A DNA stretch of 64,000 nucleotides from an uncultured Pseudomonadota bacterium (GCA_963749075.1 CAVVLJ010000022.1:128001-192000), one strand, 5' to 3'. Shown: positions 12,825-38,008, numbered from the stretch's first letter. The notes: a model not told the origin generated them from the letters alone. A program made the numbers and translations.

Positions 12825-13154
12825 CTACTGCAGGGGCGAGTAAGGCTGCGGGATCAGGAAGGAGTTGGAGATCAGGTGCGTAAGGGCGCCTTCCTTCTCA
12901 TGGACCTTGCGCTTCTGCTCGTTCCATTCCGGGTCCTTGTGAAAGGCCGCCCACTTCCTCATCCGGTCGTCCATGCTGTCGAAGGCGAGAATATAGATGA
13001 GGGCGTTCTCGCGCTCGCCCACCGCCACGGTCCAGGCCCCCACGAGCTTCATGCCGTGCCGCGCGAAGCAAGGCACCGCCATCTTATCCATCATTTCCTG
13101 CAGCACGGGAAGCTTGAGCGACAGGCATTCGTAGCGGCGGAGCTCGTAGATCAT
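12825..13154 (-). CDS. NIPSNAP family protein
   Basis: MIYELRRY, GMKLVGAW, LIYILAFDS...W..F..DPEW, P.PYSPLQ. Confidence 0.9.
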   Translation of the reverse strand: MIYELRRYECLSLKLPVLQEMMDKMAVPCFARHGMKLVGAWTVAVGERENALIYILAFDSMDDRMRKWAAFHKDPEWNEQKRKVHEKEGALTHLISNSFLIPQPYSPLQ

Positions 13155-18735: not shown

Positions 18736-20331
18736 TCATGGTGTCATGACGTGGAGCACGTTGCCTGCGAGGCCGTAGGCGACCCAGCCGCCCTTGCGGT
18801 CGTCGCCCTCGACGCGGATGACGATCTGGAGCGCCGTGCTCGCGGGGTCGAAGACCTTGTTCCGAGAGAACGTGATGCGGTCGACCTTGCCGCCGGCGAT
18901 CTTGAGGCGCGCGAGCGTCTCAGCCGTGAGCTCGGGCAAGCGGCCGAGGACCGCATCGTCGAGCTCGTCGGCCTCGAAGAACCAATCGTCGCCGTAGCCG
19001 TGCCACAGCGCCGTAGCTGCCCCGCCCGCCGAGCGCTTGAGCTCGCCCGCGTCGTAGGAGAAGAGGCCGAGGGCAGCGGGCTTCTTGGGGTCTTGCGCCG
19101 TGACGAGGAGCATGCTGTCGCGGAAATCGAGCTCCATGAGCTTGGCGTGCGCGCCGAGGCTGCCGCGCACCGCCGCGAGCGCCTCCGCCATCGCCGGTCC
19201 CTCGAGGAGGTTGAGCGGCGGCCGCTTGCTCTCGGGCAGGCGCACGCGCTTGACCTCGCCCTTGCCGTCGAAGTCGACCGTGCCTTTCTCGCCGCGGTCC
19301 TCGACGGTGATCTCCCATTGCATGGTGCTCGTCCCGAACTCGCGGGCCGGCTTCGACACCTCGACGGCATAGAGCGCGCCGCCCGGCATCTCCAGGCGCT
19401 GGCGCGCCGCGGCTTCCAGCTTCACGAGCAGGCTCCAATCCACCTCGCCGACCGCGAAGAGCTCGTTCGCGGGCATGCCCGCGGCCTTGCGCCCGGCCTC
19501 GAGCGGCTCTCTCGGCGATGCGGTGATGCCGTTGAGGTTGGCGTTGTACCAGCGCTCCTTCTTGGCATCCTCGAGGTCGCGGGCGAGGAACCACAGATAG
19601 CCGGTGGCGAAGCGCAGGGTCTCGATGCTCGGCTTCTCCCCCCACAGCTCGCGGATGTCGGCGATGGCCTCCTCGAGGGGCTTGCCGCCGGCAAGCATGT
19701 CGAGCCGCTTGGCGCGGTTGGTGCCGTCGAGATCGAGGCGGCGGACGTTGCCCTTGGCGTCGGCGATCGCCTCCGCCCGCTCGCGCGCGCTCCTCACCTC
19801 GACCGTCCACGTCACCTCGCCGCTGTGCGGCGCCGGGATGAGGGTGAGCTGGCGCTCGATGCGCATGCCGACGACCGCGGCGGGGTCCTCGAGCGCCACG
19901 CGCTTGACGGCGGCCACGCCGAGCTTGGCCGTCGCCGCGATGTTCACCTCGTCGAGGTCGAACAGGTTCTCCTCGAGCCTCGGGTTGATCAGGTCCAATT
20001 CGACGGGCGCCGGCCCGCTGACCTCCTCCCAGCTGAAGGACAAGCCCGCGGCGAGCTGGTGGTTCACGTGCACGAGTGTCCATTTGTCGACGTGCGTCGG
20101 CTGCGCCGGATCCTGGAGCTCGACGGCGAGCTCGTCGTTGCTGATCTCGATATCGAGCGCGCGCACCGGGTGGCCGATCTTGGCCTTGAGGGTGTCGAGC
20201 GCCTGCCGAGCCTCGTCGCCGGCGTAGAGCGGGGGATAGGGCGCATCGAAGCGGCAGGCGCCGAGGAGTGCCAGCGCCGCGGCGAGATAAAGGGCGCGCG
20301 CCGCGCCGCCGCTCAGGCGCGCTTGCAGCAT
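18736..20331 (-). CDS. Hypothetical lipoprotein with three internal repeats of roughly 160 aa
   Basis: Lipobox LLGA-C26; recurring blocks LFDLDEVN/LFAVGEVD/FFEADELD and W.VEV/WEITV; codon usage like neighbouring core genes. Confidence 0.7.
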   Translation of the reverse strand: MLQARLSGGAARALYLAAALALLGACRFDAPYPPLYAGDEARQALDTLKAKIGHPVRALDIEISNDELAVELQDPAQPTHVDKWTLVHVNHQLAAGLSFSWEEVSGPAPVELDLINPRLEENLFDLDEVNIAATAKLGVAAVKRVALEDPAAVVGMRIERQLTLIPAPHSGEVTWTVEVRSARERAEAIADAKGNVRRLDLDGTNRAKRLDMLAGGKPLEEAIADIRELWGEKPSIETLRFATGYLWFLARDLEDAKKERWYNANLNGITASPREPLEAGRKAAGMPANELFAVGEVDWSLLVKLEAAARQRLEMPGGALYAVEVSKPAREFGTSTMQWEITVEDRGEKGTVDFDGKGEVKRVRLPESKRPPLNLLEGPAMAEALAAVRGSLGAHAKLMELDFRDSMLLVTAQDPKKPAALGLFSYDAGELKRSAGGAATALWHGYGDDWFFEADELDDAVLGRLPELTAETLARLKIAGGKVDRITFSRNKVFDPASTALQIVIRVEGDDRKGGWVAYGLAGNVLHVMTP

Positions 20332-20376
20332 GTCCTGCTCAGCCGCCGCGGATGATGCCGGCCATGCGGCACGCCC

Positions 20377-21700
20377 TCAGTCCTCCGCGTCGTCGAGCGC
20401 GCCGGGATTCCCGATCACGTTCCAGCGCCCGCCCACGGCACCGCAGGTGACCGGCACGGCGACGAGGTCGGGGAGATAGTCCGGCCGGTTCTTGACGATG
20501 CTGCCGTTGGCGAAGGCGCGCGTCTGCTTGCCGCCCTCGGCCTCCGAATAGGCGACGGTAACGCCGCCCACGAGCGCCTCGTCCGGCGCCCAGCTGAGCT
20601 TAATCACCTTGACCGGGCGGCCCTCCTCGTCGCGTCCCTGCCAGTGCGCGGCGGTGGGCATGATCGCCTTGCCCACCCCGGGATGGAGCGTGCCGTCGAG
20701 CCCGGCGCCGATCTGGGTGAGCTTGCGCGGGTCCGGGCGATTGGGGCCGTCGAAGTCGAGCGTGGTCCATACTTCCAGATGGTCGCTGCCGATCCACGAG
20801 GCGGGTGCTGCCTGGTCGGGCCGCGGGTCGCGCACCTGCACGACGATGGTGCGCTGGTCGGGCGCCACGAGGCGCAGCTCGACATTGCGCGCGGGATCGG
20901 GGCGGCCGTAGGCGATGAAGGCTCTGCTGGCCTCGAGGCGCGCGGCACAGGTGCCGAGCACGGTGCCGTCGGGGAATGCGCCATTCTTCCGCGTCGGATC
21001 GGCGTTGCCCTCTGCATAGGGGATGTCGATGCCGACGAGGAAGCCGGGCTGGGCCGTCGCCGTCTTGTGCTGGGCCAGAAGCTCGCAGGGATCGTCGGGC
21101 TGCTTCTCCTCGGTCATCTTGGCGTTGTCGATGGCGACCGAGCGCGCCGCGAGGGTGGCGACGTTCGATCCAGCTGAGACTGCCCGAGCCGGTCTCGCTC
21201 GCGCGGAAGCCGCAGCGCTCGATGCTGAGCGTCTTCTGAGGTGCCAACTGGATCGTCACCTTCGTCTGCCAGCGGTCGTTCGAGCCGCCGAGCTGCAGGC
21301 GGCTCATGCGGTTGTCGCCGATCTTGACGGCGTCCATGCCGCGGCCGGCCGAGCCGTAGCCGTCGTTGCACAGCTTGAGAAGGGGCTGCGGCGCTTTGCT
21401 GCCCACGATCAGCCAATATTCGCGGCCGCCGTCATTGTCGCCCTCGCTCTCGCGGCAGCCCTCCTCGGGCGAGTCGTCCGGCTTGTTGGCGAGGCCGAGA
21501 TGCGCCTCCGCGACCACGAGCGGCTCGCCGGCTGGCGACTTCCCCGCCGGCCACAGCTTGGCGATCTCGCAAGCGTGGCGGTCGCCGCAGACGGCAGGCA
21601 TGAAGCGGGCGGCGCCCGCCTCGGCTGCCACGGCCGAGCCCCCCGCTACGGGCAGCGACAGCAAGAGGCCCGCGGCAGCGGCGATGCGGAACGCTCTCAT
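20377..21700 (-). CDS. Secreted cysteine-containing hypothetical protein (about 440 aa), split by an apparent +1 frameshift at 21164-21165
   Basis: Signal peptide MRAFRIAAAAGLLLSLPVAGGSAVA; deleting one base turns SWIERRH into SWIDVATLAARSVAIDNAKMTEEK, joining the two ORFs. Confidence 0.7.
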
Positions 21701-21806: not shown

Positions 21807-22136
21807 TCAGTCGCGCAGCGGCCGGCTCGCCACCAGCGGATGATCGGCCGCACTGACATGCTTCGGGCCGGCACCCCCGGGCGCCCCCCAGCCGGTCACC
21901 GCGGCGCTGAAGAAATCCGCATTGGCGGCCTTGTAGGCGACCTCGGCCGCGGGCAGGTCGTCCTCGTCGAAGATGGCGTCGACGGGGCAGACCGAGAGGC
22001 AGAGCCCGCAATTGATGCATTCGGCGGGCTGGATGTACATCATGCGCCCGCCCTCGTAGATGCATTCGACGGGGCACACCGTCTGGCAGGCGCCGTCCTT
22101 CACGTCGATGCAGGCAGAGGCGATGACGTAGCTCAC
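21807..22136 (-). CDS. 7Fe ([3Fe-4S][4Fe-4S]) ferredoxin
   Basis: GTG start; SYVIASACIDVKDGACQTVCPVECIYEG..MMYIQPAECINCGLCLSVCPVDAIF. Confidence 0.9.
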   Translation of the reverse strand: MSYVIASACIDVKDGACQTVCPVECIYEGGRMMYIQPAECINCGLCLSVCPVDAIFDEDDLPAAEVAYKAANADFFSAAVTGWGAPGGAGPKHVSAADHPLVASRPLRD

Positions 22137-22138
22137 GC

Positions 22139-22915
22139 TCAGGCGCCCCGCCATTGCGGTGCGCGCTTCTCCTGGAAGGCGCGCACCCCCTCGTGCTGAT
22201 CGCTCGACTTGAGCGCTGCCACGAGGGCGGGGAGGCGGAGCGACTGGGCCTCCTGCGGCGCAAGGCCGCTTCCCGCCCGCACCGTCTGCTTGATCGCGCG
22301 GATGGAGAGCGGCGCGCAGGCGAGGATGTCCGCGAGCCAGCGTGCGACGGCGGCGTCGATGTATGCGGTCGGCACCACCTCGTTGACGAGCCCGAGCTGC
22401 AAGGCCTCGGTCGCGGAGATGCGCCGGCCGGTCAAAAGCAACCCCATGGCCGCGACATGGGAGATGCGTCGCGGCAGGAGGGTAATGCCGCCCCCGAGCG
22501 GCAAGCGCCCGACGCGCGGCTCCGGCAGGCCGAAGCTCGCGTGCTCGGCGGCGACCACGATGTCGCAGCCGAGCACCATCTCGAAGCCGCCGCCGAGCGC
22601 CAGGCCATTGACGCGGGCGATGACCGGCACGTCGATCTTGTCGTTGAGTGCGATGCCGCCGAAGCCGCCCGGCGGCAAGGCCGCCAGATAGTCGAGGCCG
22701 GTTGGCCCGCCGCTCGCCTTCATGTCGGCGCCGCTCGAGAAGGCGCGCTCGCCCGAGCCCGTGAGCACGACGGCGCGCACGGAGGCGTCCTTCTCGATCT
22801 CCGCCCAGATGCGGACTAGCTCCGCCTCGGTCGCCTCGTCCACGGCGTTGAGGCGCTCCGGGCGGTCGATGGTGACGCGCGCGACGCCGTCCTCGCGCGT
22901 AAAGAGCACGCTCAC
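22139..22915 (-). CDS. Enoyl-CoA hydratase/crotonase family (CaiD/DpgD-like)
   Basis: DRPERLNA, AFSSGADMK, GGGFE...CD, FGLPEPRVG, EGVRAFQEKRAPQW; both catalytic glutamates present. Confidence 0.93.
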   Translation of the reverse strand: MSVLFTREDGVARVTIDRPERLNAVDEATEAELVRIWAEIEKDASVRAVVLTGSGERAFSSGADMKASGGPTGLDYLAALPPGGFGGIALNDKIDVPVIARVNGLALGGGFEMVLGCDIVVAAEHASFGLPEPRVGRLPLGGGITLLPRRISHVAAMGLLLTGRRISATEALQLGLVNEVVPTAYIDAAVARWLADILACAPLSIRAIKQTVRAGSGLAPQEAQSLRLPALVAALKSSDQHEGVRAFQEKRAPQWRGA

Positions 22916-24126
22916 GACACCACCTTGCCGCGGTTAAGCGCGGCGATCTTTCCCTCGTCGTAGCCGAGCTCGCCGAGGATCGCCGCGGCATGCTCGCCGA
23001 GCCTTGGCGGGGCGTAGCGCAGGCGGAAGGCCGAGGGGTCCATGGCGATCGGGCTGCCGATGTAGCGCCTCGGCTCGTTGCCGCCGTCGGCTGCCCCGTC
23101 GAGCTCCACCACGATGCCGTTCGCCGCCGTCTGCTCGGAGGCGAGCGCCTCGCCGAGCGTCTGCACGGGTGCCGAGAGGAGGTCCTGCTCCTCGAGGCGG
23201 GCGAGCCAATAAGCCGTCGTGTTGCTTGCGAAGCGCTCGGCGAAGCGGGCCTTGAGCTCGGCCTTGCGGGCCAGCTGGCCGGCGAAGGTGGCGTAGGGCG
23301 GCTCGGCCGAGAGGTCCTCGATGCCGAGGGCGGTGCAAATGTCCCTGAGCGGATTGGCCTTGAAGGCGCCGACCAGCACGAGGGCGCCGTCCGAGGTGCT
23401 GAATACGCCGTTCAGCGGGAAGGCGCCCCAGTTGAGCTCGCGGCGGCGCTGCAGCCACATCGCCGCCTCCTGCATCTGCATCGCCAGCATGGAATCATAG
23501 AGCGAGACGGAGATTTCCTGGCCGCGCCCCGTCTTCTCGCGCTGGAGGAGCGCCAGCAGCACCCCCTGCACCAGATGCATGCCGGCTGCGTAATCGGCGA
23601 GCGCCGTGCAATAGACCGCATAGGGCTGCCGCTCGTCCGAGCGCCGCGCCATCACGCCGGAGAGCGCCTGGGCGAGGATGTCCTGGCCGCCCTTGTGGGC
23701 GAGCGGGCCGCGCGGTCCGTAGCCCGAGCCGAAGGCGGAGATGATGCGCGGGTTGATGGCGGCGAGTGCGGCATGGCCGAAGCCCATGCGCTCCATGACG
23801 CCGGCGCGGAAGTTGTTCACCACCACGTCGGCGGTCTTCACGAGGTCGTAGACGATGGCCTTGCCCGCGGCCCCCCTCAAGTCGATGGCGATCGAGCGCT
23901 TGTTGCGGTTGATGCTGCGGAAGACCGGGTTGTCGAGCCCGTCCGGGTCGTCGGCGAGCGAGGTTCGCGAGAGGTCGCCCACGCCGGGCCGCTCGATCTT
24001 GATCACGTCGGCGCCGTAGTCGGCGAGCATCTGGGTGGCGCAGGGCCCCAGCATCACTTGCGTGAAGTCGATGACGCGGATGCCGGAGAGCGGCTGCGCT
24101 GTACCGTTGGCGGGGCTGCTCGTCAT
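22912..24126 (-). CDS. CaiB/BaiF class III CoA-transferase
   Basis: PLSGIRVIDFTQVMLGP, LADYGADVIKIERPG.GD, NRNKRSI.IDL, PPRLGEH. Confidence 0.93.
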   Translation of the reverse strand: MTSSPANGTAQPLSGIRVIDFTQVMLGPCATQMLADYGADVIKIERPGVGDLSRTSLADDPDGLDNPVFRSINRNKRSIAIDLRGAAGKAIVYDLVKTADVVVNNFRAGVMERMGFGHAALAAINPRIISAFGSGYGPRGPLAHKGGQDILAQALSGVMARRSDERQPYAVYCTALADYAAGMHLVQGVLLALLQREKTGRGQEISVSLYDSMLAMQMQEAAMWLQRRRELNWGAFPLNGVFSTSDGALVLVGAFKANPLRDICTALGIEDLSAEPPYATFAGQLARKAELKARFAERFASNTTAYWLARLEEQDLLSAPVQTLGEALASEQTAANGIVVELDGAADGGNEPRRYIGSPIAMDPSAFRLRYAPPRLGEHAAAILGELGYDEGKIAALNRGKVVS

Positions 24127-25484
24127 GCCGCCTTCTCTCCCGCATCGAGGGTGGCGTTAGGCGCCGGCACGTCGCCAGGATCGGCGCCCTGGGCGCGCAA
24201 GCGCGCCTGCAGCGCCTTCACGTCCACCTGCTCGACGCCGATGCCGGCATCGAGCGCCAGCGCCGCGGCGAGCCCGGCGGCCTCGCCCATGGCGATGCAG
24301 GGGGGAATCTCGCGCGACACGCGCTGCGCCGCCGAGGTCGCGGAATAGTGCCGCCCGGCGACGAGGAGCTGGCCGACGTTCTTCGGCAGGAGGCAGCGGT
24401 ACGGATAGTAGTAGTCGCGGCCGCGCGCGATGCTGTCGGGGAAGTGGCGGCGGCCCATGACGTCCTCCTTGGTGAGCACGTAGGCGCCATCGAGAAGGCG
24501 CGTCTGGCGGATGCCGAGCTGGGGCGCCACGTCGACCACATAGGCGTTCCTGAAGCCGGGCATCCTTTCGCGCACGAATTCGACGAGGCGGGCGATGCGC
24601 TGGCGCCCCTCGAAATCGGCGCGCGTCAGGTCCTCGATCTTGAGCCCGTCGTAGCCGGCCATGTGCGGGCAGTTGCACCACACGACGCCGGGGAGCGGCG
24701 TCTTGAGCCACCATTTGTCCCAGGAGCCGCCCGTGATCCGCTTCGCCTCGCGGTCGATGGCGTTGAAGGCCGCGGGCTCGGCATATTCGAAGCGCTCGGC
24801 CTCCTCGGTGTCGACCGCGCCCAAGCGGAAGACGGTGGTCACTATGAAGCTGCCCGCAATGAAGGCAGCACCGGCGGAGGCCGCCACGTCGAGATCGCCC
24901 GTCGCGTCCACCACGATGCCGCCGAGGATGGCCTGGCGGCCGGCCTTGCCCTCGACGATGACGCCCGCGACGCGGCCCTCCTCGACGATCGCCTTGGAGA
25001 ACCAGCTGTGCAGGCGCAGGTTCACCTTCGCCTCGGCGATCATGTCGTTCGAGACGCGCTTGAAGCCGTCGGGATCGAAGGCGACGGAATAGCAGATGGG
25101 CTGCGGCTTCTCGTGCGCGGTGAAGTCGAAGAGGCCCCAGCGCGACCACTTGCGCCACATCGCCCAGTCGGCGCGGCGGTCCGCCTCGGGCGGCGACACG
25201 GCGAGGCCGAGCCGCTCCATGCGCTCGATCATCTCCGTCGAGAGGCCGCGCACGCTGATCTCGCTGCCGTTGCACATGTCGTCGAGCACGAGGACCATGC
25301 CGCCCGACGCAAGGCCGCCTAGATAGGGATAGCGCTCGAGGAGGGCGACCTTGAGGCCGTTCCGCGCTCCCGACACGGCAGCACCTATGCCGGCCGGCCC
25401 GCCTCCCACCACGACGAGATCGGCGCGCGCCGCCACGGGAACGCGCTCGCCCGGCTCGTCGATCCAGTCGCTCGCGATACTCAT
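24123..25484 (-). CDS. FAD-dependent oxidoreductase (FAD_oxidored/PF12831-like)
   Basis: VVGGGPAGIGAA, LERYPYLGGLASGG, VDATGDLD, GIRQTR, PYRCLLP, LLVAGR, R.IPPCIAMGEAAG. Confidence 0.88.
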   Translation of the reverse strand: MSIASDWIDEPGERVPVAARADLVVVGGGPAGIGAAVSGARNGLKVALLERYPYLGGLASGGMVLVLDDMCNGSEISVRGLSTEMIERMERLGLAVSPPEADRRADWAMWRKWSRWGLFDFTAHEKPQPICYSVAFDPDGFKRVSNDMIAEAKVNLRLHSWFSKAIVEEGRVAGVIVEGKAGRQAILGGIVVDATGDLDVAASAGAAFIAGSFIVTTVFRLGAVDTEEAERFEYAEPAAFNAIDREAKRITGGSWDKWWLKTPLPGVVWCNCPHMAGYDGLKIEDLTRADFEGRQRIARLVEFVRERMPGFRNAYVVDVAPQLGIRQTRLLDGAYVLTKEDVMGRRHFPDSIARGRDYYYPYRCLLPKNVGQLLVAGRHYSATSAAQRVSREIPPCIAMGEAAGLAAALALDAGIGVEQVDVKALQARLRAQGADPGDVPAPNATLDAGEKAA

Positions 25485-25527
25485 GGGCGGGTCTCCTTGT
25501 CGATGAGGGGACGAGCGGACACGGCGC

Positions 25528-26388
25528 TCAGCCCGCGAGCGCCACGTTCCACTTGATGACGCGGCGCTCGATGGCGGTGATCGCGGCGAAGAAGAGGGCG
25601 GAGAAGGTCGAGCCGACGACGATGGTGGCGTAGAGCAAGGGCGAGTCGAAGTTGTAGGTGGCCTGGATGATGAGCGCGCCGATGCCGACGTTGGAGCCGA
25701 TCCATTCGCCCACGATGGCGCCGATCACCGCGGTCGAGGCGGCGATCTTGAGGGCCGAGAAGAGATAGGGCAGCGCGTTCTGCACCCGGAGCTTGAAGAA
25801 GATCTCCCGCCCGCTCGCCGACAGCACCTTCATGAGCTCGAGCGCCTGGGGATTCACGTCGCGCAGGCCGCGGGTCATGTTGACGAGGGTGGGGAAGAAG
25901 CAGACCAGCGCCGCGATGGCGATCTTGGGCTCCATGCCGTTGCCGAGGAGGAGCACGAGGATGGGCGCCTTGGCCACCACCGGGATGGTGTTGACCATGA
26001 CCGCGATGGGGAAGAGGGCCTCCTCGATCGCCTTCTTCTGCACGAAGAAGGTGGCGATCGCGATGGCGGTCAGGTTGCCGAGGAGAAAGCCGAGCACCGC
26101 CTCGATCGCGGTCGGCAGCAGGTTCTCCATGAGGAGAGCGAAGCGGCCGGCGAGCACATGGAGGACGGCTGCCGGCGTGGGTGCGATGAAGGGCTTGATG
26201 TCGAGGAGGATCACGGCACCCCACCAGAGGGCCACGAAGCCCACGACCGCCAGCGCGGGCAGCAGACGCTTGCGCCACTCGAGCATGCGCCGGGCGTGGA
26301 GGAACCTCGCCTTCGCCTCCTCGTCGTGGGCGAAGGAGGGGCCGGAGGGTGCGGAGCGCGGACGCCCGCCTATGGTCTCGTCGCTCAT
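25528..26388 (-). CDS. NitT/TauT ABC permease
   Basis: PFIAPTP, NTIPVVAKAP, CFFPTLVN..RGL, ALPYLFSALKI, GAIVGEW. Confidence 0.92.
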   Translation of the reverse strand: MSDETIGGRPRSAPSGPSFAHDEEAKARFLHARRMLEWRKRLLPALAVVGFVALWWGAVILLDIKPFIAPTPAAVLHVLAGRFALLMENLLPTAIEAVLGFLLGNLTAIAIATFFVQKKAIEEALFPIAVMVNTIPVVAKAPILVLLLGNGMEPKIAIAALVCFFPTLVNMTRGLRDVNPQALELMKVLSASGREIFFKLRVQNALPYLFSALKIAASTAVIGAIVGEWIGSNVGIGALIIQATYNFDSPLLYATIVVGSTFSALFFAAITAIERRVIKWNVALAG

Positions 26389-27212
26389 CAGCAGGTCTCC
26401 AGCACGCGGCGCAGGTGGCCGGCGAGGGCCACGAATTGCGCGCTCTCGCGCAACGCGAGGCGGCGCGGGCTCGGCAGCTCGACCGGCACCAGCTCGCGCA
26501 CGCGGCCCGGCCTCGCTGCGAGCAGCAGCACCTCCTGGCCGAGGAAGGCCGCCTCGTAGATCGAATGGGTGACGAAGAGGATGGTGGTGCCGGTCGAGCT
26601 CCAGAGGCCGAGGAGCTCCTCGTTGAGCCGGTCGCGCGTGATCTCGTCGAGCGCGCCGAAGGGCTCGTCCATGAGGAGGAGCTTGGGCTCCGTGACGAGC
26701 GCGCGGGCGAGCGCCACGCGCTGGCGCATGCCGCCCGAGAGCTCGTGGGGATAGGCGTGCTCCCAGCCGGCAAGACCGACCATGGCGAGGAGCTCGCCGG
26801 CGCTGCTGGCGCCCGCGCGCGCGGCACCGCCCCCGACCTCGAGCGGCAGCATCACGTTGGCGAGCACCGTGCGCCACGGCAGGAGGGCCGGGTCCTGGAA
26901 GACGAAGCCGATGTCGCGGTTCTTGCGCGCTGCCGCCGGCGGCTTGCCCAGCACGCTCAGCGAGCCGGCACTGGGTGCGATGAGATCGGCGATGACGCGC
27001 AGGAGGGTCGATTTGCCGCAGCCCGAGGGGCCGAGAAGACTCACGAAGCCGCCGCGCGCGACCGTGAGGCTCACGTCCTCGAGCGCCGTGATGACGCCGC
27101 GCTCGCTTACGAAGCGCACGGAGAGGCCCTCGCAGCGGACGGCCGCCTCGGCAGGCCCAGGAGATGCCGCGCGCTCGCGCTGTGCCGCCGCCGCCTCGCC
27201 CGCCATCGCCAT
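26388..27212 (-). CDS. NitT/TauT ABC ATP-binding protein
   Basis: GPSGCGKST, VFQDPALLPWR, LSGGMRQR, MDEPFGALD, FVTHSIYEA. Confidence 0.95.
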   Translation of the reverse strand: MAMAGEAAAAQRERAASPGPAEAAVRCEGLSVRFVSERGVITALEDVSLTVARGGFVSLLGPSGCGKSTLLRVIADLIAPSAGSLSVLGKPPAAARKNRDIGFVFQDPALLPWRTVLANVMLPLEVGGGAARAGASSAGELLAMVGLAGWEHAYPHELSGGMRQRVALARALVTEPKLLLMDEPFGALDEITRDRLNEELLGLWSSTGTTILFVTHSIYEAAFLGQEVLLLAARPGRVRELVPVELPSPRRLALRESAQFVALAGHLRRVLETC

Positions 27213-27222
27213 CGCTTGCTGC

Positions 27223-28263
27223 CTATCCGAGCTTCGCGCGCGCGTCCTTGGTCGCGGCGAGGATGTCCGTGTCGATCACTTCCGCGAGCTTGGGCGGGCC
27301 GGCGGAGAACTGCTTGAGCTGGTCGTAGAGATCGATCTGCTCCTGCCACACCGCGGGCTCGAAGGTGCCCCAGCCCTTGGCCTTGGTGGCGGCGGTGAAT
27401 TCGAACTTGAGCATCGTGCCCACCGCGGCGAGCTCGTCCTTCTCGACGAGGTTGGGGTATTCCTTGAGCAGAAGGCCGACCGCCTTCTCGGGGTTCTCGT
27501 AGGTGTAGGCCCAGCCGCGCGAGGCCGCGCGCACGAAGGCCTCGAGCAGCGCGGCCTTGTGCGCGAGCGTGTCGGTGGTCGCGTAATAGGGCTGGGCGTA
27601 GAGCTTGACCCCCTCGTCCCACAGGCGCATGGCGACGAAATTGCCGCCGAGGGCCCGGAGCGCCGTGGTATTGGTGAGCCAGCCCGTGACCGCCGCCACT
27701 TGGCCGGTCACCACCGGCGACATGTCGGAGCCGATCACCACCACCTCGACGTCCTTCTCGGGGATGTTGTGCTTCTCGAGGAGGGCCGTGAGCAGGATCT
27801 TGCCGGTCGCCTGGATGCCGATCTTCTTGCCGACCATGTCCTCGGGCGTGCGGATGGGATCCTTGGGCAGCGAGAAGAAGGCGTAGGGATGCTCCTGGGC
27901 GCCGACCGCGAAGCATTTGACCGGCAGCTTCTGGGAGGCGGCGAGCATGAGCGAGGGGCTCGAGGAGACCTGGCCGATCTCGAAGCGCCCGGAGGCGACG
28001 ATGGCGACGCCGTCGATGCTCGGGCCGCCCGGCTGGATGGCGAGGTTGAGCTTCTCCTCCTCGAAATAGCCGAGCTGCTTCGCCGCGCACTCGCCGATCT
28101 GGTTGCCGCCGCCGATCCAGCCGAGCTGGAGATTGACCGTGGTGGTCTTGGCCTGGGTGTGGCCGATGCGCGGCGCCAGGCCCGCGATCGCAAGTCCGCC
28201 CGCGGCCGCACCTCCCCGCATCAGAGCCCGCCGCGTCAGCCGCCAAGAGCTTCCTTTTGTCAT
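27223..28263 (-). CDS. NMT1/THI5-like ABC substrate-binding protein, Tat signal
   Basis: TRRALM leader; LQLGW, GYFEEEKL...IQPGGP, F.RA..RGW.Y...NPE.AV. Confidence 0.88.
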   Translation of the reverse strand: MTKGSSWRLTRRALMRGGAAAGGLAIAGLAPRIGHTQAKTTTVNLQLGWIGGGNQIGECAAKQLGYFEEEKLNLAIQPGGPSIDGVAIVASGRFEIGQVSSSPSLMLAASQKLPVKCFAVGAQEHPYAFFSLPKDPIRTPEDMVGKKIGIQATGKILLTALLEKHNIPEKDVEVVVIGSDMSPVVTGQVAAVTGWLTNTTALRALGGNFVAMRLWDEGVKLYAQPYYATTDTLAHKAALLEAFVRAASRGWAYTYENPEKAVGLLLKEYPNLVEKDELAAVGTMLKFEFTAATKAKGWGTFEPAVWQEQIDLYDQLKQFSAGPPKLAEVIDTDILAATKDARAKLG

Positions 28264-28401
28264 CGTCGAGATCTCCCAGGTTCCCGTCAGCGCAAAATCG
28301 GCGCCCGGCCGGTGCCCTAGAATAGAAGAGTTTTTCGCCTATGGTGATGCTTTTTTGCCAGTGTGCCAGTTCGAATTTCCGGGAACGGAGATGAGGCTTC
28401 G

Positions 28402-28549
28402 CCCCTCTCCTCCTTCAGGAGGGAGGGGGCCATCCCGGATGGATGGGAGGGTGAGGAGGCCGAGCGCTTGCGCGCCCGTGCGGCCGACGATGTGCCCGGC
28501 AAAGCCACCTCCTCACCCCGACCCTCTCCTCCTGAAGGAGGAGAGGGGG
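28402..28549. repeat. Composite REP/RIME-like palindromic element
   Basis: Two terminal hairpins (CCCCTCTCC...GGAGGGGG and CCCTCTCCTCC-TGAA-GGAGGAGAGGG) with inner GGGTGAGG/CCTCACCC arms; same layout as 43841-43986. Confidence 0.75.
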
Positions 28550-28565
28550 ATTGTCCAGTGATTTC

Positions 28566-28581
28566 TTGACTGTTTGGTCAA
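28566..28581. promoter_or_regulatory. RutR-type operator
   Basis: TTGACTGTTTGGTCAA versus the RutR box TTGACCAnnTGGTCAA (2 mismatches), just upstream of urc1; a RutR-like TetR ends the same operon. Confidence 0.75.
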
Positions 28582-28627
28582 TTTTCGCCAGAGTTGCCGT
28601 TTGAGGGATTGGGGCGATCCCAGGGCG

Positions 28628-29860
<1,233 letters not shown>

Positions 29861-29863
29861 CGC

Positions 29864-31126
29864 TTGGCAGCGGTGCAGCACGGCAGTCCCCGTACCCAGC
29901 CCCTCGACGAAGGAGCGGATGCACGGCGCCTGAGCACGGCCGCGGCGGTGCGCGAGCGCGCGGCGCGCATGCTTGCGATGGCGGAGCGTGACGAGCTCCC
30001 TCATTTCGCGCTCGTGCCCGAGCGCCTCCCGGGCGTCATCGATTACGTCCTCGAGACGACGCGGCAGCGCTATCCGGACCTCGCCGTCCCGTTCCACAGC
30101 CGCTGGCGGCACTTCTCGGCGGGCGGGTGCCAACGCTGGTCGGAGCTCGCGGCATCGCTCGGCGGCGTGCCGCCGGACGAGGTGGCGCGCATCCGCTGCG
30201 ATCTCGCGGTGGTGAGCGTGCTGCTCGACGCGGGTGCCGGCGAAGGCTGGTGCTATCGCGAGGCCGGCGGGGGCGCATACGCGCGCTCCGAGGGCCTCGC
30301 GGTCGCGAGCTACCACATGTTCACGAGCGGGCTCTTCTCGGCCGATCCGCACGCCCCCTATCGCGCGGACGCCTCGGCGCTCGCCGCCGTCACGGACGAT
30401 CGCCTCGCCTCGGCGCTGCAGGCGAGCGCGCGCAATCCCATGGTCGGGCTCGCCGGACGTGCAGCCCTTCTCCGCCGTCTCGGCGCCGCACTTCTCGCGG
30501 AGCCGGCGCTCTTCGGCTCGCCGCCGCGCGTCGGCCGCATCTTCGATCATCTCCGCCAGCGCGCGGCGGGTGCCGCGCTGCCGGCAAGCGAGATCCTCGC
30601 GGCCGTCATGCGCGGGCTGGGACCCATCTGGCCGGGCCGCGAGAGCCTCGGTGGCGTCAACCTGGGCGACGTCTGGCGCCATTCCGCCATGCGCACGGGC
30701 GACGCCACGGAGAGCCTGATGCCGTTCCACAAGCTCTCCCAGTGGCTCGCCTATTCGCTCATCGAGCCGCTCGCGGAGGGCGGCGTGCCGGTCGCCGGGA
30801 TCGACGAGCTGACCGGCCTCGCCGAATACCGCAACGGCGGCCTCATGATCGACGGCGGCCTCCTCGTGCCGCGCGACCCGACGCTCCTCGGCCGGCGGCT
30901 TTCGCCAGGCGACGAAGCAGTGGTGGAATGGCGCGCGCTCACCGTGGCGCTCCTCGACCGCATCGCCGAGGGACTGCGCGCGGTGCTCGGTGTTGACGCC
31001 GTGCGGCTTCCCTTGGCCTCGGTGCTCGAGGGCGGCACCTGGGCGGCCGGCCGGCGCATCGCCCGCGAGCGCCGACCCGACGGCGGCCCGCCGCTCGTCG
31101 TCGAGAGCGACGGGACCCTGTTCTGA
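29864..31126 (+). CDS. URC4/Urg3 family protein (DUF1688)
   Basis: [82 protein letters not shown]. Confidence 0.92.
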
Positions 31127-31155
31127 GGCGAGACCCGAGCGAGAGAGGGAACAGC

Positions 31156-31788
31156 ATGGCCGGCAACGTCTTCGTCATCGATCATCCGCTCGCCCAGCAC
31201 AAGCTCACCCTCATGCGCCGCAAGGAGACCTCGACCGGCGAGTTCCGCCTGCTCGTGCGCGAGATCAGTCCCTTCATGCTCTACGAGGTGACGCGCGACC
31301 TGCCGCTCACCGAACGCGAGATCGAGACGCCGCTCCAGACCATGAAGGCGCCGGTCTTGGCGGGAAAGAAGCTCTGCCTCGTGCCGATCCTGCGTGCCGG
31401 GCTCGGCTTCGTGGATGCCATGCTCGATCTCGTGCCCGCGGCGCGCGTCGGGCACATCGGCCTCTACCGCGATCCCGAAAGCCTCGCCGCGGTCGAATAC
31501 TATTTGAAGCTGCCGGAGGACATCGCGTCCCGCCGGGTGATCCTCGTCGATCCCATGCTGGCGACCGGGCATTCCGCGACCGCGGCACTCGGCCGGCTCA
31601 AGGAGGCGGGAGCGGAGAACATCAAGTTCGTCTGCCTGGTGGCGGCACCGGTCGGCATCGCCGAGGTCCAGGCCGAGCATCCCGACGTGCCGATCTACAC
31701 GGTGGCGATCGACGAGAGGCTCAACGACCATGCCTACATTCTCCCCGGGCTGGGGGACGCCGGTGACCGGCTCTTCGGCACCAAGTAA
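31156..31788 (+). CDS. upp: Uracil phosphoribosyltransferase
   Basis: [43 protein letters not shown]. Confidence 0.97.
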
Positions 31789-32431
31789 GGCAGCACCCGC
31801 CAAGGGCCGCATCCGGCGCTCGAACGAGGAGAGCATCCTGCGCGCCGCCGAGGAGGTCTTCGCGCGCGCGGGCTTCGGCGGCGCGCGCGTGGCCGACATC
31901 GCCCGACGCGCCGGCATCCCGCAGGCCAACCTGCATTACTATTTCAGGACCAAGCGCAGGCTCTACCGCGCCGTGCTCGAGAACATCCTCGAGCTGTGGT
32001 TAGCTGAGACCGACATCATCCGCGCGGAGAGCGAGCCGCGGAAAGCGCTCGAGCAATACGTGCGCGCCAAGATGCGCTTCTCGCGCCGCTTCCCGAACGC
32101 CTCCAAGGTCTTCGCCAACGAGGTCATCCACGGCGCGCGCGAGATCGGTCCCTTCCTCAGGAAGGAGCTGCGCGCCCTCGTCGAGGCGAAGACGCGGGTG
32201 ATCGAGCAGTGGATCAGCGCGGGCCGCATGGCGCCGCTCGACCCGCGCCACCTCTTCTTCATGATCTGGGCTGTGACCCAGACCTACGCCGATTTCGAGG
32301 GGCAGGTGCGCGCCGTGCTCGGCGTATCCGCGCTCGGCGAGCGCCAGTTCGCCCATGCGACCGAGGAGGTCGTGGGCCACGTGCTCAGGAGCTGCGGCTT
32401 GGCGCCAGCGCCGGCAGAGGATGCCGAATGA
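31763..32431 (+). CDS. rutR: RutR-like TetR family regulator (TetR_C_3)
   Basis: [13 protein letters not shown]....IA..AG....[37 protein letters not shown]; likely GTG start at 31763 overlapping upp (alternative ATG at 31730). Confidence 0.85.
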
Positions 32432-32512: not shown

Positions 32513-35500
32513 TCACGAGCTGGCGGAGACCGGTCTCGCGCCGCGGCCGGACGGCGCGAACAGGGCCTCGATGTCCTCCTCGGTAATGGCGAGCGTGGCG
32601 CTACGCTCGGCGTCGAGGATGCTGGCGACGAGGTCGCGCTTCCTTGCCTTGAGCGCCTCCATCTTCTCCTCGACCGTCTCCAGCATGACGAGCTTGTGGA
32701 CGAAGACCGCCTTGTTCTGGCCGATGCGGTGGGCGCGCCCGCTTGCCTGGTCCTCGACGGCGGGGTTCCACCAGGGATCGTAGAGGATGACGGTGTCGGC
32801 GGCGGTGAGGTTGAGGCCGGTGCCGCCTGCCTTCAGGCTGATGAGGAAGAGCGGCACCTCGCCCGCCTGGAACCGCCTGATCGGCGTCCCCCGCTCGCGC
32901 GTGTCGCCGGTCAGGACGACGCGCGCGATGCCCGCTCTGTCGAGCGCCTCCTCGATGAGCGCCAGCATGGAGGTGAACTGCGAGAAGAGCAAAATGCGCC
33001 GCCCCTCCTCGACGAGCTCGGGGATCATCTCCATCAGGCGCTCGAGCTTGGCCGAGCCGGCCTTGGTGTTGCGGACGGCCTGGAGCTTGACGAGGCGCGG
33101 GTCGCAGCAGACTTGGCGGAGCTTGAGGAGCGCATCGAGAATGACGATGCTCGAGCGCGCCAGGCCCTTCGCCGCGACGGCCTCGCGAACCTTGGCGTGC
33201 ATGGCAAGGCGGATGCTCTCGTAGATCGCCCGTTGCGCCGCCTCCATCTCAACCCGCTCGACGATCTCCGTCTTCGGCGGCAGCTCCAATTCGACCTCCT
33301 CCTTCGTTCGGCGCAGGAGAAAGGGCCGCACGCGCCGCGCGAGTTGCGTGCGCCGCTCGACGTCGCCGAGCTTCTCGATGGGCACGCGATAGCGGCGGTT
33401 GAAGTCCTGCCGGTCGCCGAGGAAGCCAGGTGCGAGGAAGGCGAAAAGCGACCACAGCTCGCCCAGATGGTTCTCGAGCGGCGTGCCGGAGAGGCAGAGG
33501 CGCTGGCGCGCCTCGAGCTTGGCCACGAGCCGCGTCGTCAGGGCGTTGGGGTTCTTGATGGTCTGCGCCTCGTCAAGGACGACGAGATGCCAAGCCAGTG
33601 CTGCCAGCGTCTCGTGGTCGCGCGCGAGCAGCGGATAGGTCGTGATCGCGAGGTCGTGCGAGGGAATGGCGCCGAAGCGCGCCTTGCGGTCGGCGCCATG
33701 GAGCGTCAGGAGCGAAAGTGCCGGTGCAAACCGCGCCGCCTCCATCGCCCAGTTCGTCACCAGGCTCGTCGGGCAAACCACGAGCGAGGGCCGGTCCATA
33801 TGTCCTGAGGCCTTCTCGGCCGCGAGATGGGCGAGCGTCTGCACCGTCTTGCCGAGCCCCATGTCGTCGGCGAGGATGCCGCCGATGCCGGCCTTGCGAA
33901 GGAACTGCAGCCAATCTAGGCCGCGTGCCTGGTACGGGCGCAAGGCGGCGCGGAAGTCCGGCGGCACCGTCGCTCGGGGGATGCTCCCGGTCTCGCGCAG
34001 AAGCCGGCCCAGTTCGCGCAAGCGCTCTCCGCCGCGCCAGAGCAGGCCCGCCGCGCGCGTAGCCTCCTCGAAGGCCGCGAGATCGCCGGCATCCAGTGCC
34101 GAGAAGCCGAGGCCCGTTGCCTTGCCGCCGAGGGCGCCGGCGCTGAAGAGCTCCAGGAGCGCCTTGAGGATCGGTCGAATGCGGCCGAAGGGGAGCGGCA
34201 GGATGCGTCCATCGGCGAGCGGGAGGAAGACCGGCGCATCCTTGGCCGCGCGCTCCCAAGTTGCCGCGTCGTCGGATGTTGCCACTTCGAGGAAGGCGAG
34301 CAATGCCGGCACCAGGTCGACGCGCTCGCCGTCGACCGTTGTGCCGAGCGCCAGCTCGAACCAATCGATGCCCGACCCTTCATGCAGCTCGGCTGTCACC
34401 TCGCCGGCGAACGTGGCGAACTTGACGGGGAAGTCGTCGGCGACCGCCACGGTCCAGCCTTCCGAGCGAAGCTTGGGCACCTCGAGGTAATGGAAATCGA
34501 TCCACTCCCTGCCGCTCGGGCTCCCCATCAGCATGAAATCGTTGCCATGGCGGCCGGCGGAATTGGCGTACCACACGTCGGCCACGCGGCGCAGGCCGCG
34601 TGCGATCAGGCGTTGGAATGCCCTTCGCTCGCCGTCGCGGTCCCGCTTGACGGCATAGAGGCGCCCCTCGTGCGCCACCGTCGGCACCATGCTTTTGTTG
34701 GCGTGAAGAACGAGCACCGGGCCGTAGCGGAAGGCGAGCCGGGCAAGCGGGGTCCGCACGCGCTCTCGGTCGGCCGCGCTCGAGTGCGAGCCGATGCGGC
34801 CATAACCGTACGGGTTTGCGGCAAGCTCGCCGACGAAGAGCTCGAGATGGGGGAGCGGCGGTGCCCGCAGGGGCTCCGGCGGCGCCATGGGGGCCGGCCA
34901 GGCGGCTTCCAGCGCCGGCAGCCGCTTCGCCAGCTCGGCGCGGACGAGCCCCGCGGCGGCGGCCGTAACCGGCGGTGCGGCCAGGAGCGTATCCGCGAGC
35001 GGTTGCGGGCAGTCGAGCTCGAGCGGACCGAGCACGCCGCGTGCCGCGTCGACATACCAAGCGGGCGCCAGGCGAAACGCTTCGAAACCGCTCTCCGTCT
35101 CGACCGCGAGTTGCTGGGTGCCGTCTTCGCCAAGGCGCCAAGCGAGCCGCCCGGGCCACGCGCGGCCTTCGCTCACCGCTGGCCCCTCGATGGATTTCCA
35201 GCGCGCCCGCCCGGTTGCGATGATCTGGCGCAGCGTCTCGACGCCCTCGGCGCCTTCGAGGCGACGGCCGCCGGCGCCATAGTAATACGAGGGGCCGGCC
35301 ACGAGGCGCCGCATGATGCGCCGGTCGGAAGGGCGGAGGAATTTGGCCGGCTTCGGCTGATGGATGTTCTGCGGCGACCAGCGGCTCGCATTCGCTGCGT
35401 AGGACCCGTCCTTGCGCAGGCGGGCGGACATGGGAGCGACGTTCAGGGCGGGGATGCCCTGCACCGGCGCGTCGAGGCTGAGCACATAGACAAGGCGCTG

Positions 35501-35989
35501 TCGCACCTCCGGAGGGTAGTCTTCATTTCCGCCGTCGCGCGCCTCATCGAGCGCCCGCAGCCAGGCAGCGATGTCGGGCGGCGCCGCGGGTGATGCGTCA
35601 TTCTCCTTCGTCTCGGCAAGTGCTGCTGTGCGAGGGACGGTGGTGTCCTCGGCGTTGTCCGGGAGGCGCAACGAAAGGGTCTCGGGCGCGGCGACGATGC
35701 CGCGCCCCTCCAAGACCGCCATCAGGGCGGCGGCGACATGCTTGCAGTTGAACCCCACCGGGCACGAGCACGTGCCCTCGATCTCGACGAGCCCGCCGGG
35801 ATAGGTGCTGAGGGAGATGTCTTGCGCATAGGGGCGGCGCGCCGAACCTTGCACCTTGGACGTGACCACGGCGCCGTCCGCCGAGAGCGCGGTCGCGAGT
35901 ACGTTGCCCAGTCTCAGATATTCGCGTGCCTTGGCGAAGGCATTTCGCGAAACCGCATCGCGGACGTCGTCAAGGGTGAACGCGATCAT
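32513..35989 (-). CDS. SWIM zinc finger-SNF2 family helicase/ATPase
   Basis: SWIM CSCPVGFNCKH; LRPYQ, LADDMGLGKT, DEAQ, SGTPLENHL, LISLKAGGTGLNLT.AD, DPWWNPAVEDQA..RAHRIGQ. Confidence 0.93.
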   Translation of the reverse strand: MIAFTLDDVRDAVSRNAFAKAREYLRLGNVLATALSADGAVVTSKVQGSARRPYAQDISLSTYPGGLVEIEGTCSCPVGFNCKHVAAALMAVLEGRGIVAAPETLSLRLPDNAEDTTVPRTAALAETKENDASPAAPPDIAAWLRALDEARDGGNEDYPPEVRQRLVYVLSLDAPVQGIPALNVAPMSARLRKDGSYAANASRWSPQNIHQPKPAKFLRPSDRRIMRRLVAGPSYYYGAGGRRLEGAEGVETLRQIIATGRARWKSIEGPAVSEGRAWPGRLAWRLGEDGTQQLAVETESGFEAFRLAPAWYVDAARGVLGPLELDCPQPLADTLLAAPPVTAAAAGLVRAELAKRLPALEAAWPAPMAPPEPLRAPPLPHLELFVGELAANPYGYGRIGSHSSAADRERVRTPLARLAFRYGPVLVLHANKSMVPTVAHEGRLYAVKRDRDGERRAFQRLIARGLRRVADVWYANSAGRHGNDFMLMGSPSGREWIDFHYLEVPKLRSEGWTVAVADDFPVKFATFAGEVTAELHEGSGIDWFELALGTTVDGERVDLVPALLAFLEVATSDDAATWERAAKDAPVFLPLADGRILPLPFGRIRPILKALLELFSAGALGGKATGLGFSALDAGDLAAFEEATRAAGLLWRGGERLRELGRLLRETGSIPRATVPPDFRAALRPYQARGLDWLQFLRKAGIGGILADDMGLGKTVQTLAHLAAEKASGHMDRPSLVVCPTSLVTNWAMEAARFAPALSLLTLHGADRKARFGAIPSHDLAITTYPLLARDHETLAALAWHLVVLDEAQTIKNPNALTTRLVAKLEARQRLCLSGTPLENHLGELWSLFAFLAPGFLGDRQDFNRRYRVPIEKLGDVERRTQLARRVRPFLLRRTKEEVELELPPKTEIVERVEMEAAQRAIYESIRLAMHAKVREAVAAKGLARSSIVILDALLKLRQVCCDPRLVKLQAVRNTKAGSAKLERLMEMIPELVEEGRRILLFSQFTSMLALIEEALDRAGIARVVLTGDTRERGTPIRRFQAGEVPLFLISLKAGGTGLNLTAADTVILYDPWWNPAVEDQASGRAHRIGQNKAVFVHKLVMLETVEEKMEALKARKRDLVASILDAERSATLAITEEDIEALFAPSGRGARPVSASS

Positions 35990-37002: not shown

Positions 37003-37181
37003 CCTTTGCCACCCTCAGGGCCGCCGTACCATGTCCTCGACATTACCGCAGAATCGGCAGGAACGTGGACGCCATTGCAGCGCCGCCGGCGCCGAGGCAG
37101 CGCCGGCCGTCCCTGCCGCATCTTGCGGTCGCCCGCGCGACGCGCCATGATCGGCCGCGTCAAAGAGGGAAGGGGACAACG

Positions 37182-37973
37182 ATGAGGCCCAATAACGTTC
37201 AAGCGGTCTGGAGCAAGAGCGGCGCCGTGGTCAATGGCTGGCTCGGCATTCCGAACAGCTTCTCGGCCGAGGTCATGGCGACGCTCGGCTGGGATTCGCT
37301 GGTCATCGACCTGCAGCACGGGCTGATCGACTATCAGACCGCGGTCACCATGATGCAGGCGATCTCGACGACCGCCACCACGCCGCTCGTGCGCGTGCCG
37401 TGGAACGACCCCGCCATCATCATGAAATGCCTCGACGCCGGCGCCTACGGCGTCATCTGCCCGATGATCAACGACCGCGAGGAGGCGGAGCGCTTCGTGG
37501 GCGCCTGCCGCTATCCGCCCAAGGGCTACCGCAGCTCTGGCCCCATCCGCGGCATGATCTACGGCGGCAGCGACTACCAGACCAAGGCCGACGAGACGAT
37601 CGTGACGCTGGCCATGATCGAGACGGCGGACGGGGTGAAGAACCTCGATGCCATCTGCTCGACGCCGGGCCTCGACGCCGTCTATATCGGGCCCAATGAT
37701 CTCTCGCTGACCCACGGCGGCAAGGGCGGGCTCGACGCGACCGACCCGATGGTCGTGGCCCTCATCGACCGCATCCTCGCGGCGGCCAAGCGCAATGGCA
37801 TCAAGGCCGGCATCCACACCGGCAGCGTCGCCTATGCCAAGGCCATGATCGCCAAGGGCTTCGATTTCGTGACCGTGCTGAGCGACAACCGCATCCTCGC
37901 GCAACTCGGCCGCCAGGTGGTGGAGGAGATGCGCGGCGGCGCTGCCAAGAAGGGCCCGGGCGGCGTCTATTGA
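37182..37973 (+). CDS. HpcH/HpaI aldolase family protein
   Basis: [43 protein letters not shown]. Confidence 0.92.
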
Positions 37974-38008
37974 GGCGGCCCTGCGGCGCGAGCCGGGGAG
38001 GTTCTGTC

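Follow-up and report, generated by a model that had tools for sequence, protein, structure and literature searches.

We analysed a 64,000-nucleotide (nt) stretch of DNA from an uncultured Pseudomonadota bacterium (GCA_963749075.1, CAVVLJ010000022.1:128001-192000; hereafter the window, with positions counted from its first letter). At positions 21807-32431, two gene clusters diverge from a shared intergenic region of 364 nt: a four-gene URC uracil operon on the plus strand and, on the minus strand, seven genes for an ABC importer, a flavoprotein, a coenzyme A (CoA)-transferase, a crotonase and a ferredoxin, hereafter the module for simplicity. Matches to Pfam and NCBIfam models place the eleven genes exactly where a preliminary description of this locus had put them.

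A URC operon with a RutR-like gene

Judged by sequence, urc1-urc4-upp-rutR is the known bacterial URC uracil operon. It contains the set of genes that marks membership: a URC1-type cyclohydrolase with GTP_CH_N and GTP cyclohydrolase II domains, a DUF1688 protein and a uracil phosphoribosyltransferase (UPRT). The first gene, urc1 (or urcA; 28628-29860, +), matches PF12471 (1e-77) and PF00925 (1.8e-12) and scores 731 bits against NF005536, for which the cut-off is 403; its product aligns with the solved bacterial chains PDB 7ej3 and 7eev over the full length of those chains (3e-175), and its start is the ATG at 28628 rather than the TTG at 28574. Directly downstream, after a gap of 3 nt, lies urc4 (29864-31126, +; PF07958, 6e-143), which encodes the DUF1688 protein and is present as one copy in the genome. 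The third gene, upp (31156-31788, +), encodes the UPRT equivalent to URC6 (PF14681, 1.3e-77; TIGR01091, 279.6 bits against a cut-off of 208) and, as the single tblastn match genome-wide, is the sole copy found. The fourth gene (31730-32431, +) overlaps the end of upp by 26-59 nt, depending on its start codon, and encodes a TetR regulator with PF00440 and the YcdC-like C-terminal domain PF08362 (1.2e-49).

E. coli RutR (YcdC) represses rutABCDEFG, with uracil and thymine as ligands. The window's regulator shares with it the TetR_N domain, the YcdC-like C-terminal domain and a palindromic box (see below), but falls under both curated RutR cut-offs (TIGR03613, 196.2 bits against 368; NF011584, 176.6 bits against 230), and RutA was not found in the genome. 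RutR-like repressor is the name that suits it best; it accompanies URC and not Rut genes, and its putative ligand and DNA binding are assigned by analogy.

The operon has the same URC1 domains and the same order of DUF1688 and UPRT as the URC1/URC4/URC6 pathway of Lachancea kluyveri and the bacterial urc operon. It differs in its RutR-like fourth gene, in the RutR-type box upstream and in the route for urea, with urease instead of urea amidolyase: the genome encodes a urease, and no full-length urea carboxylase was found in it. Across the 31 other alphaproteobacterial URC loci that we compared, the strand and order of urc1-urc4-upp are kept (URC1 in 30 and UPP in 29 of the 31); conservation of neighbours beyond these three genes was looked for in the same loci and none was found. 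A RutR-like gene follows upp in just one of them, in a genome (G008) of the window's own family.

Three URC loci elsewhere have features of their own. At L034, from an alphaproteobacterial metagenome-assembled genome, DUF1688 (residues 12-380) and UPRTase (430-632) share one open reading frame (ORF) of 633 amino acids (L034:2222-4123, +), which may be a natural URC4-UPRT fusion. Locus L088 (genome G310) carries a gene for a 2-oxoglutarate-Fe(II) oxygenase (11791-12885, -) directly upstream of urc1, whose product might act on a substituted pyrimidine, together with a GNAT gene and a PF12831 paralog downstream of upp. At L102 (G257), urc1-urc4-upp is preceded on the same strand, ~2-4 kb ahead of urc1, by another ABC system of the NitT/TauT type; its substrate-binding protein (SBP), ATPase and permease are 26%, 39% and 31% identical to those of the window, and it is a candidate pyrimidine importer.

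A seven-gene module on the minus strand

The preliminary description had called the minus-strand genes a tightly coupled operon, and their spacing bears this out. Going from the SBP gene to the ferredoxin gene, the first two genes are 10 nt apart, the next pair overlap by 1 nt, 43 nt separate the third pair, the following two junctions overlap by 4 nt each, and the last is either a 2-nt gap or a 16-nt overlap, so that all fall between a 16-nt overlap and a 43-nt gap.

The first three genes encode an NMT1/THI5/ThiY-like periplasmic SBP (27223-28263, -; PF09084 NMT1, 1.1e-44), an ABC ATPase of the taurine/nitrate/sulfonate type (26388-27212, -; PF00005; best NCBIfam match the TauB model at 2.9e-62, below its cut-off) and an ABC permease of the NitT/TauT type (25528-26388, -; PF00528, BPD_transp_1, 2.7e-28). 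An NMT1-fold SBP, a BPD_transp_1 permease and an ABC ATPase in one operon identify a NitT/TauT-type importer. Among solved structures in the PDB, the best match to the SBP is 4nmy (5e-18) and the second is ThiY (3ix1, 1.8e-13), with TauA at 3e-6. ThiY binds an aminopyrimidine, the thiamine pyrimidine. With ThiXYZ/ThiY, TauABC and SsuABC the module shares the combination of an NMT1-fold SBP, one permease and one ATPase; unlike ThiY, whose similarity to the SBP is remote, it has no thiamine genes nearby, and its transporter is joined to a CoA-dependent catabolic operon.

The remaining four genes encode an FAD-dependent oxidoreductase of an uncharacterised, highly conserved subfamily (24123-25484, -; PF12831, 9e-87), a family III (CaiB/BaiF/Frc) CoA-transferase (22912-24126, -; PF02515, 2.5e-105, 353 bits, positions 1-365 of 366), a crotonase-superfamily enoyl-CoA hydratase/isomerase (22139-22915, -; PF00378, 2e-59) and a 7Fe (3Fe-4S + 4Fe-4S) ferredoxin of the FdxA type (21807 to 22136 or 22154, -; NF045480 FdxA_Actino, 128.4 bits against a cut-off of 125; PF00037). 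Every NCBIfam equivalog stays below its cut-off for the CoA-transferase, as do the best NCBIfam models for the crotonase, DpgD, EchA19 and CaiD. The ferredoxin starts either at the ATG at 22154 or at the GTG at 22136, its homologs beginning M-x-Y-V-I, and C9, C17, C21, C25, C40, C43, C46 and C50 are invariant in an alignment of 14 rows.

The carnitine genes cai/fix (CaiB, CaiD, FixC, FixX) likewise combine a family III CoA-transferase, a crotonase, an FAD protein and a small ferredoxin, and the CaiD and CaiB models match the module at 6.7e-53 and 1.2e-31, far below cut-off. In contrast to cai/fix, the module has no acyl-CoA dehydrogenase (CaiA), electron transfer flavoprotein or CaiT antiporter, its importer is of the NitT/TauT rather than the betaine type, and its flavoprotein belongs to PF12831, with a resemblance to FixC limited to a template modelling (TM) score of 0.48.

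The flavoprotein gave a confident AlphaFold2 model (pLDDT 94.4, pTM 0.93), for which Foldseek returned no close solved fold in the PDB: its best matches, all at TM 0.50 or less, were a geranylgeranyl-reductase-like protein, MnmG, flavin monooxygenases and the ferredoxin-linked FixC. A sequence search of the PDB matched only the FAD-binding motif, and the clusters found in the ESM Atlas carry only the name 'FAD-dependent oxidoreductase'. Relatives are abundant, with 4152 at E ≤1e-20 among the 8000 candidates scored and 1184 clusters (at 50% identity) reaching 1e-30; the best 120 are 73-83% identical, and none of these 120 has a functional name.

The flavoprotein and ferredoxin genes are adjacent in 57 of the 80 module loci described below. 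A predicted complex of the two proteins scored 0.47, against 0.07 for the best control; of 80 solved complexes 58 attained this mark, as did 2 of 110 mismatched pairs, and among scores of 0.60 or less those attaining it numbered only 7 of the 80 solved complexes and both mismatches. The prediction runs agree in at least 88% of contacts, with a partner pLDDT of at least 90. The modelled complex weakly suggests that the ferredoxin may serve as the electron partner of the flavoprotein.

Two groups of more distant PF12831 proteins were considered and set aside. The PF12831 gene near URC at L088 and L093 is a paralog of 30-33% identity in another context (GNAT, luciferase-like monooxygenase), and a further paralog, at 35-38% identity, had no module partners within ~9 kb at any of the five loci examined.

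The shared intergenic region

As the preliminary description had stated, a RutR-type box lies between the two units: the sequence TTGACTGTTTGGTCAA at 28566-28581, 47 nt upstream of the urc1 ATG. It agrees with 12 of the 14 specified positions of TTGACCAnnTGGTCAA, which we take to be the palindromic operator consensus of RutR, and is the only match in the window at two mismatches or fewer. At up to three mismatches the window holds 5 matches, against 0.57 expected from shuffles, and genome-wide there are 22 matches at up to two mismatches, against ~4.8 expected from base composition. The motif alone is thus not unique, and the weight rests on its place and on its recurrence in G008. In that genome the box TTGACCAAACGGTCAA, with a single mismatch (13/14), lies ~76 nt upstream of urc1, and the module sits on a different contig, with a LysR gene and without a box at two mismatches or fewer. 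Because G008 keeps the box at urc1 while its module is elsewhere, the predicted RutR box belongs to the urc1 promoter. No box at two mismatches or fewer was found in the module loci of the five other genomes with both units, G008 among them.

On the module's side, comparison of upstream regions across genomes located a core promoter motif and a degenerate remnant of a LysR-type palindrome at 28312-28361. Other genomes share the promoter motif ahead of the module's SBP gene, where 34 of 70 loci also have an exact TGCC-N5-GGCA palindrome; the exact palindrome is absent both from the window, which has only the remnant, and from G004, another genome of the same genus. A promoter and terminator scan gave nothing above chance, and no RNA run was listed as containing the stretch.

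Between the two promoters lies a dispersed palindromic, REP/MITE-like repeat (28402-28548; 147 nt), whose 21-nt arms are 100% complementary. The arms have 159 matches in the genome at up to three mismatches, counting both strands, and the repeat has very high contig depth in soil sequencing runs. At another locus, L017, a different palindromic insertion occupies the same promoter.

A repeat of this kind could be the site of a false join, in which case the two units would have been brought together by the assembly. The arms match at many places in the genome, and in two soil runs the Logan contigs end at the repeat, with no listed piece bridging 28534-28757. This explanation is nevertheless very improbable. 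The assembly comprises 23 contigs, with the window well within one of them, a contiguity that suggests a long-read assembly, which would span a 147-nt repeat; contigs drop repeats, so a missing bridge is uninformative by itself; and in G004, an independent genome of the same genus, urc genes directly adjoin the module on a contig that lacks the repeat.

The module is widespread and usually stands apart from URC genes

A scan of one genome per species gave at least 543 relatives of the flavoprotein among the 600 pattern matches listed, and we examined the best 80 loci, counting a module gene as present at tblastn E ≤1e-8 with at least half of the query covered, and neighbours within 10 kb. In these 80 flavoprotein-anchored loci the order SBP-ATPase-permease-flavoprotein-CoA-transferase-crotonase-ferredoxin is fixed, holding in about 70-77 of the genomes, with the SBP gene present in 70, the ATPase in 72, the permease in 75, the flavoprotein in 80, the CoA-transferase in 77, the crotonase in 76 and the ferredoxin in 57; several of the missing genes reflect contig ends. 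Identity to the window's proteins ranges over 45-84% for the module as a whole and 62-78% for the flavoprotein. The module is found in hundreds of species-level genomes, mostly of Alphaproteobacteria, with a few records from Comamonadaceae, Acidobacteria and Actinomycetota, and its carriers include plasmids of Rhizobium, Ensifer, Paracoccus and Rhodococcus.

A LysR gene stands beside the module in 61 of the 80 loci and in 34 of 57 metagenome loci (those with an SBP at least 55% identical, many on short contigs). An ortholog of this LysR is absent from the window's genome, where the best LysR hits reach at most 28% identity (8e-19); in the window's genus, the module appears to have lost both its LysR gene and the operator. 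Downstream of the window's ferredoxin gene, two ORFs of 531 and 246 amino acids with no Pfam family (18736-21117, -) occupy the slot that the LysR gene or accessory enzymes take in other genomes.

The preliminary description had proposed that the flavoprotein, CoA-transferase and crotonase extend the URC pathway, and had held that rarity of this trio beside urc genes would count against the idea. Rarity is largely what the neighbourhood comparison revealed. Of the 80 module loci, one (L034) has URC1 and URC4 within 10 kb and four have upp; a module ortholog accompanies the URC genes in none of the 31 other URC loci; and none of the 57 metagenome module loci contains URC genes. Five other genomes with both units (G008, G059, G114, G166 and G392) have them on different contigs, and their modules keep the LysR gene. 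The upp gene beside the module at L058 was set aside as a coincidence, as it lies among the housekeeping genes dnaB, alr, mlaE and a radA-like ATPase; at L071 and L057, upp occupies the same place.

On this distribution we think it somewhat probable that the locus holds two separate units that became neighbours: a URC operon controlled by a RutR-like repressor, and a widespread, self-contained CoA-dependent module for uptake and catabolism that lost its LysR regulator and was joined to urc genes. Coupling to the other unit would then be a conserved property of neither.

Evidence for a link between the two units

The following observations weigh against reading the units as separate. In G004, urc1-urc4-upp-SBP-ATPase-permease-flavoprotein-CoA-transferase-crotonase-ferredoxin run on one strand; the array spans three abutting contigs, 285 nt separate upp from the SBP gene with no rutR between them, and this spacer keeps the module's promoter motif without the palindrome. 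A quick URC1 tree grouped the window with G008 (support 98) and placed the G004 URC1 outside the 95%-support clade that contains the window's, and an approximately unbiased test, for a group named after the tree had been seen, rejected the window and G004 sequences as sisters (p = 0.011). Given this separate ancestry, the juxtapositions in the window and in G004 are probably independent, the joining having happened twice. A third arrangement, at L034, consists of urc1, the DUF1688-UPRT ORF, an ORF without a family, a divergent amidohydrolase gene and the module. RutR control of the module would be possible across 250-300 nt, the box lying ~300 nt from the SBP start with the repeat element in between. 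The function of every module step is inferred from sequence, and no member of the PF12831 subfamily carried a functional name in the searches made.

Genome content points the same way. In the window's family, URC4 is present in 3 of 3 genomes with the module and in 0 of 8 without it, and overall it is present in 26 of the 80 module genomes (17/40 and 9/40), against 26 of 389 module-negative genomes from a class sample, where at least 3 of the 80 module genomes also belong to the sample and kin are not independent. The culturable Bosea vaviloviae SD260, Microvirga arsenatis and Reyranella soli (module loci L037, L004 and L014) are among the carriers in which URC4 was found, with the two units at separate loci. 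That sample comprised 401 genomes, with module orthologs counted at 60% identity or more; URC4 was found in 31, module orthologs in 12 and both in 5. Within families the two do not track each other: in families f64 and f4 the sampled genomes that carry the module differ from those that carry URC4, and in f105 and f157 URC4 is also found in a genome without the module. An unrelated PF12831 paralog, that of 35-38% identity, co-occurs with URC4 in 5 of 9 class-sample genomes. In view of the kinship, the lack of tracking within families and the equal enrichment of the paralog, we read the URC4 enrichment mostly as an effect of lineage and genome content.

The link drawn in the preliminary description therefore survives in part. 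G004, L034, the URC4 enrichment and the ThiY-like SBP favour it, while the rarity of adjacency, the module's own LysR and the position of the box at urc1 do not. Taking together the two forms that a metabolic or regulatory coupling of the URC genes and the module could take, described below, we regard real coupling in the window's genus as possible but rather doubtful.

One of these forms, close to what the preliminary description had put forward, makes the module a downstream branch. The CoA-transferase, crotonase and flavoprotein/ferredoxin would turn the three-carbon product of the URC pathway, 3-hydroxypropionate or malonate semialdehyde, into propionyl-CoA via 3-hydroxypropionyl-CoA and acrylyl-CoA, and the ABC system would import a pyrimidine. 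The three enzyme types do correspond formally to CoA activation, dehydration and enoyl reduction, and the units are adjacent in the window and co-directional in G004. The fit is otherwise poor: the enzymes nearly always travel with their own importer, and with LysR; 54 of the 80 module genomes lack URC4; and none of the 31 other URC loci has a module ortholog nearby. Deaminases, the DHDPS-family enzyme and the aldehyde dehydrogenase that accompany the module elsewhere play no role in a 3-hydroxypropionate route, the cluster encodes no reductase for converting malonate semialdehyde to 3-hydroxypropionate, and the crotonase and CoA-transferase reach no 3-hydroxypropionate-specific curated model. 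The redox enzyme, moreover, is a PF12831 flavoprotein, and known acrylyl-CoA reductases belong to other families. A 3-hydroxypropionate branch is unlikely, the least likely form of coupling, and we consider it quite improbable that the module works in this way.

Accessory genes and the putative substrate

Genes that accompany the module in other genomes bear on what it may act on. Deaminase-type genes lie in 31 of the 80 loci (11 of TRZ/ATZ type A, 10 of TRZ/ATZ type B and 10 with the CDA fold), and 9 loci have a DHDPS-family enzyme and/or an aldehyde dehydrogenase resembling alpha-ketoglutarate-semialdehyde dehydrogenase. The four accessory sets (the two TRZ/ATZ types, the CDA-fold type and the DHDPS/aldehyde dehydrogenase set) are mutually exclusive in these 80 loci. 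On plasmid pTAV3 of Paracoccus versutus, for example, the module operon is found with a DHDPS-family enzyme and an aldehyde dehydrogenase; in Chelatococcus the operon is extended by a deaminase; pRL11 of Rhizobium johnstonii 3841 (RL_RS29860-29905) carries the module with LysR, an amidohydrolase, a DHDPS-family enzyme and ferredoxin; and Rhodococcus qingshengii has an MFS transporter instead of the ABC system, plus a DHDPS-family enzyme, an SDR, an aldehyde dehydrogenase and fdxA. This pattern suggests that the module enzymes act on an imported compound and that a nitrogen-removing or aldehyde-oxidising step usually follows. The substrate is probably an imported carboxylic acid that bears nitrogen as an amino, imino or N-heterocyclic group.

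The second form of coupling would place the module upstream of the URC genes, as a feeder. It would import a pyrimidine-bearing or pyrimidine-derived acid, for instance a pyrimidine that is modified or substituted on a side chain, strip off the acid part and release uracil for the URC pathway where that is present. The acid would be converted to a thioester, desaturated by the flavoprotein and hydrated, and the heteroatom-bearing carbon would then collapse; at loci with deaminases, the base would first be deaminated to uracil. In favour of this route are the SBP, which is nearer to the aminopyrimidine-binding ThiY than to TauA, the nucleobase-type deaminases of three folds beside the module, the three different juxtapositions of URC genes and module, the enrichment of URC4 in module genomes, and the other NMT1-type ABC system directly upstream of urc1 at L102. 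Against it stand the 54 module genomes without URC4, the failure of the module and URC4 to track each other in f64 and f4, and the unrelated PF12831 paralog that matches URC4 as often; the MFS transporter, DHDPS-family enzyme, SDR and aldehyde dehydrogenase of Rhodococcus point instead to an aliphatic keto-acid or semialdehyde product, and the upp of L058 sits among housekeeping genes. We judge this route to be unlikely.

The window's genome has a homolog of the type-A amidohydrolase at another place, on contig C17 (C17:758656-761194; L203:6656-9194), after a gene for a RuBisCO-like protein of form IV whose best model, of the MtnW type, is below cut-off. This TRZ/ATZ-type amidohydrolase and the one beside the module at L034 share 64% identity; the context of the gene on C17 was considered as a clue to the function of the module and gave none. 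A paper on 3,3'-thiodipropionate had no bearing on the module, and a limited literature search, supplementary tables excluded, turned up no publication that deals with the module or with a CoA pathway linked to URC.

Elsewhere in the window, a gene for an SNF2-family helicase of 1158 amino acids (32513-35989, -) directly follows rutR, and two further genes lie at 37065-38827 (+), the first for an HpcH/HpaI-family aldolase or citrate-lyase-like protein and the second of the D-glutamate cyclase family.

Discussion

In the reading that we favour, with two separate units side by side, the URC operon would follow the known URC scheme. Upp would convert uracil to UMP, the URC1/UrcA cyclohydrolase would open the pyrimidine ring of the nucleotide, and the URC4 step would end in urea, a substrate for the urease that the genome encodes. 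Most likely the operon represses itself through its last gene, whose RutR-like TetR product would occupy the box (-47 to -62 of urc1) until uracil or thymine releases it, by analogy with RutR of E. coli.

The module would take up an acid through the ThiY-like SBP and the ABC importer, and the family III CoA-transferase would convert it to its thioester. The PF12831 flavoprotein, paired with the 7Fe ferredoxin as electron partner, could then carry out a C-C/C=C redox step, the crotonase would add water, and the product would be finished in other genomes by the interchangeable deaminases or by the DHDPS-family enzyme and aldehyde dehydrogenase. Elsewhere the module would be driven by its own LysR activator; in the window's genus, urc genes appear to have been placed directly upstream instead, divergent from the module in the window and co-directional with it in G004.

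It seems unlikely, if worth stating, that the module is an undescribed CoA-dependent pathway for an N-heterocyclic, pyrimidine-related carboxylic acid (desaturation by a ferredoxin-linked flavoprotein, hydration by a crotonase and base release) that was rewired here from LysR to URC/RutR. Were this true, URC/RutR and the module would together make up a two-stage pyrimidine-scavenging island.

The URC operon itself is already known, and the RutR-type repressor and box attached to it add little. Of greater use is the module, a strongly conserved operon without an assigned function, whose flavoprotein lacks a close relative of solved structure. Together, its repeated joining to urc genes in one genus and the recurrent deaminase neighbours provide a concrete short list of substrates to try.

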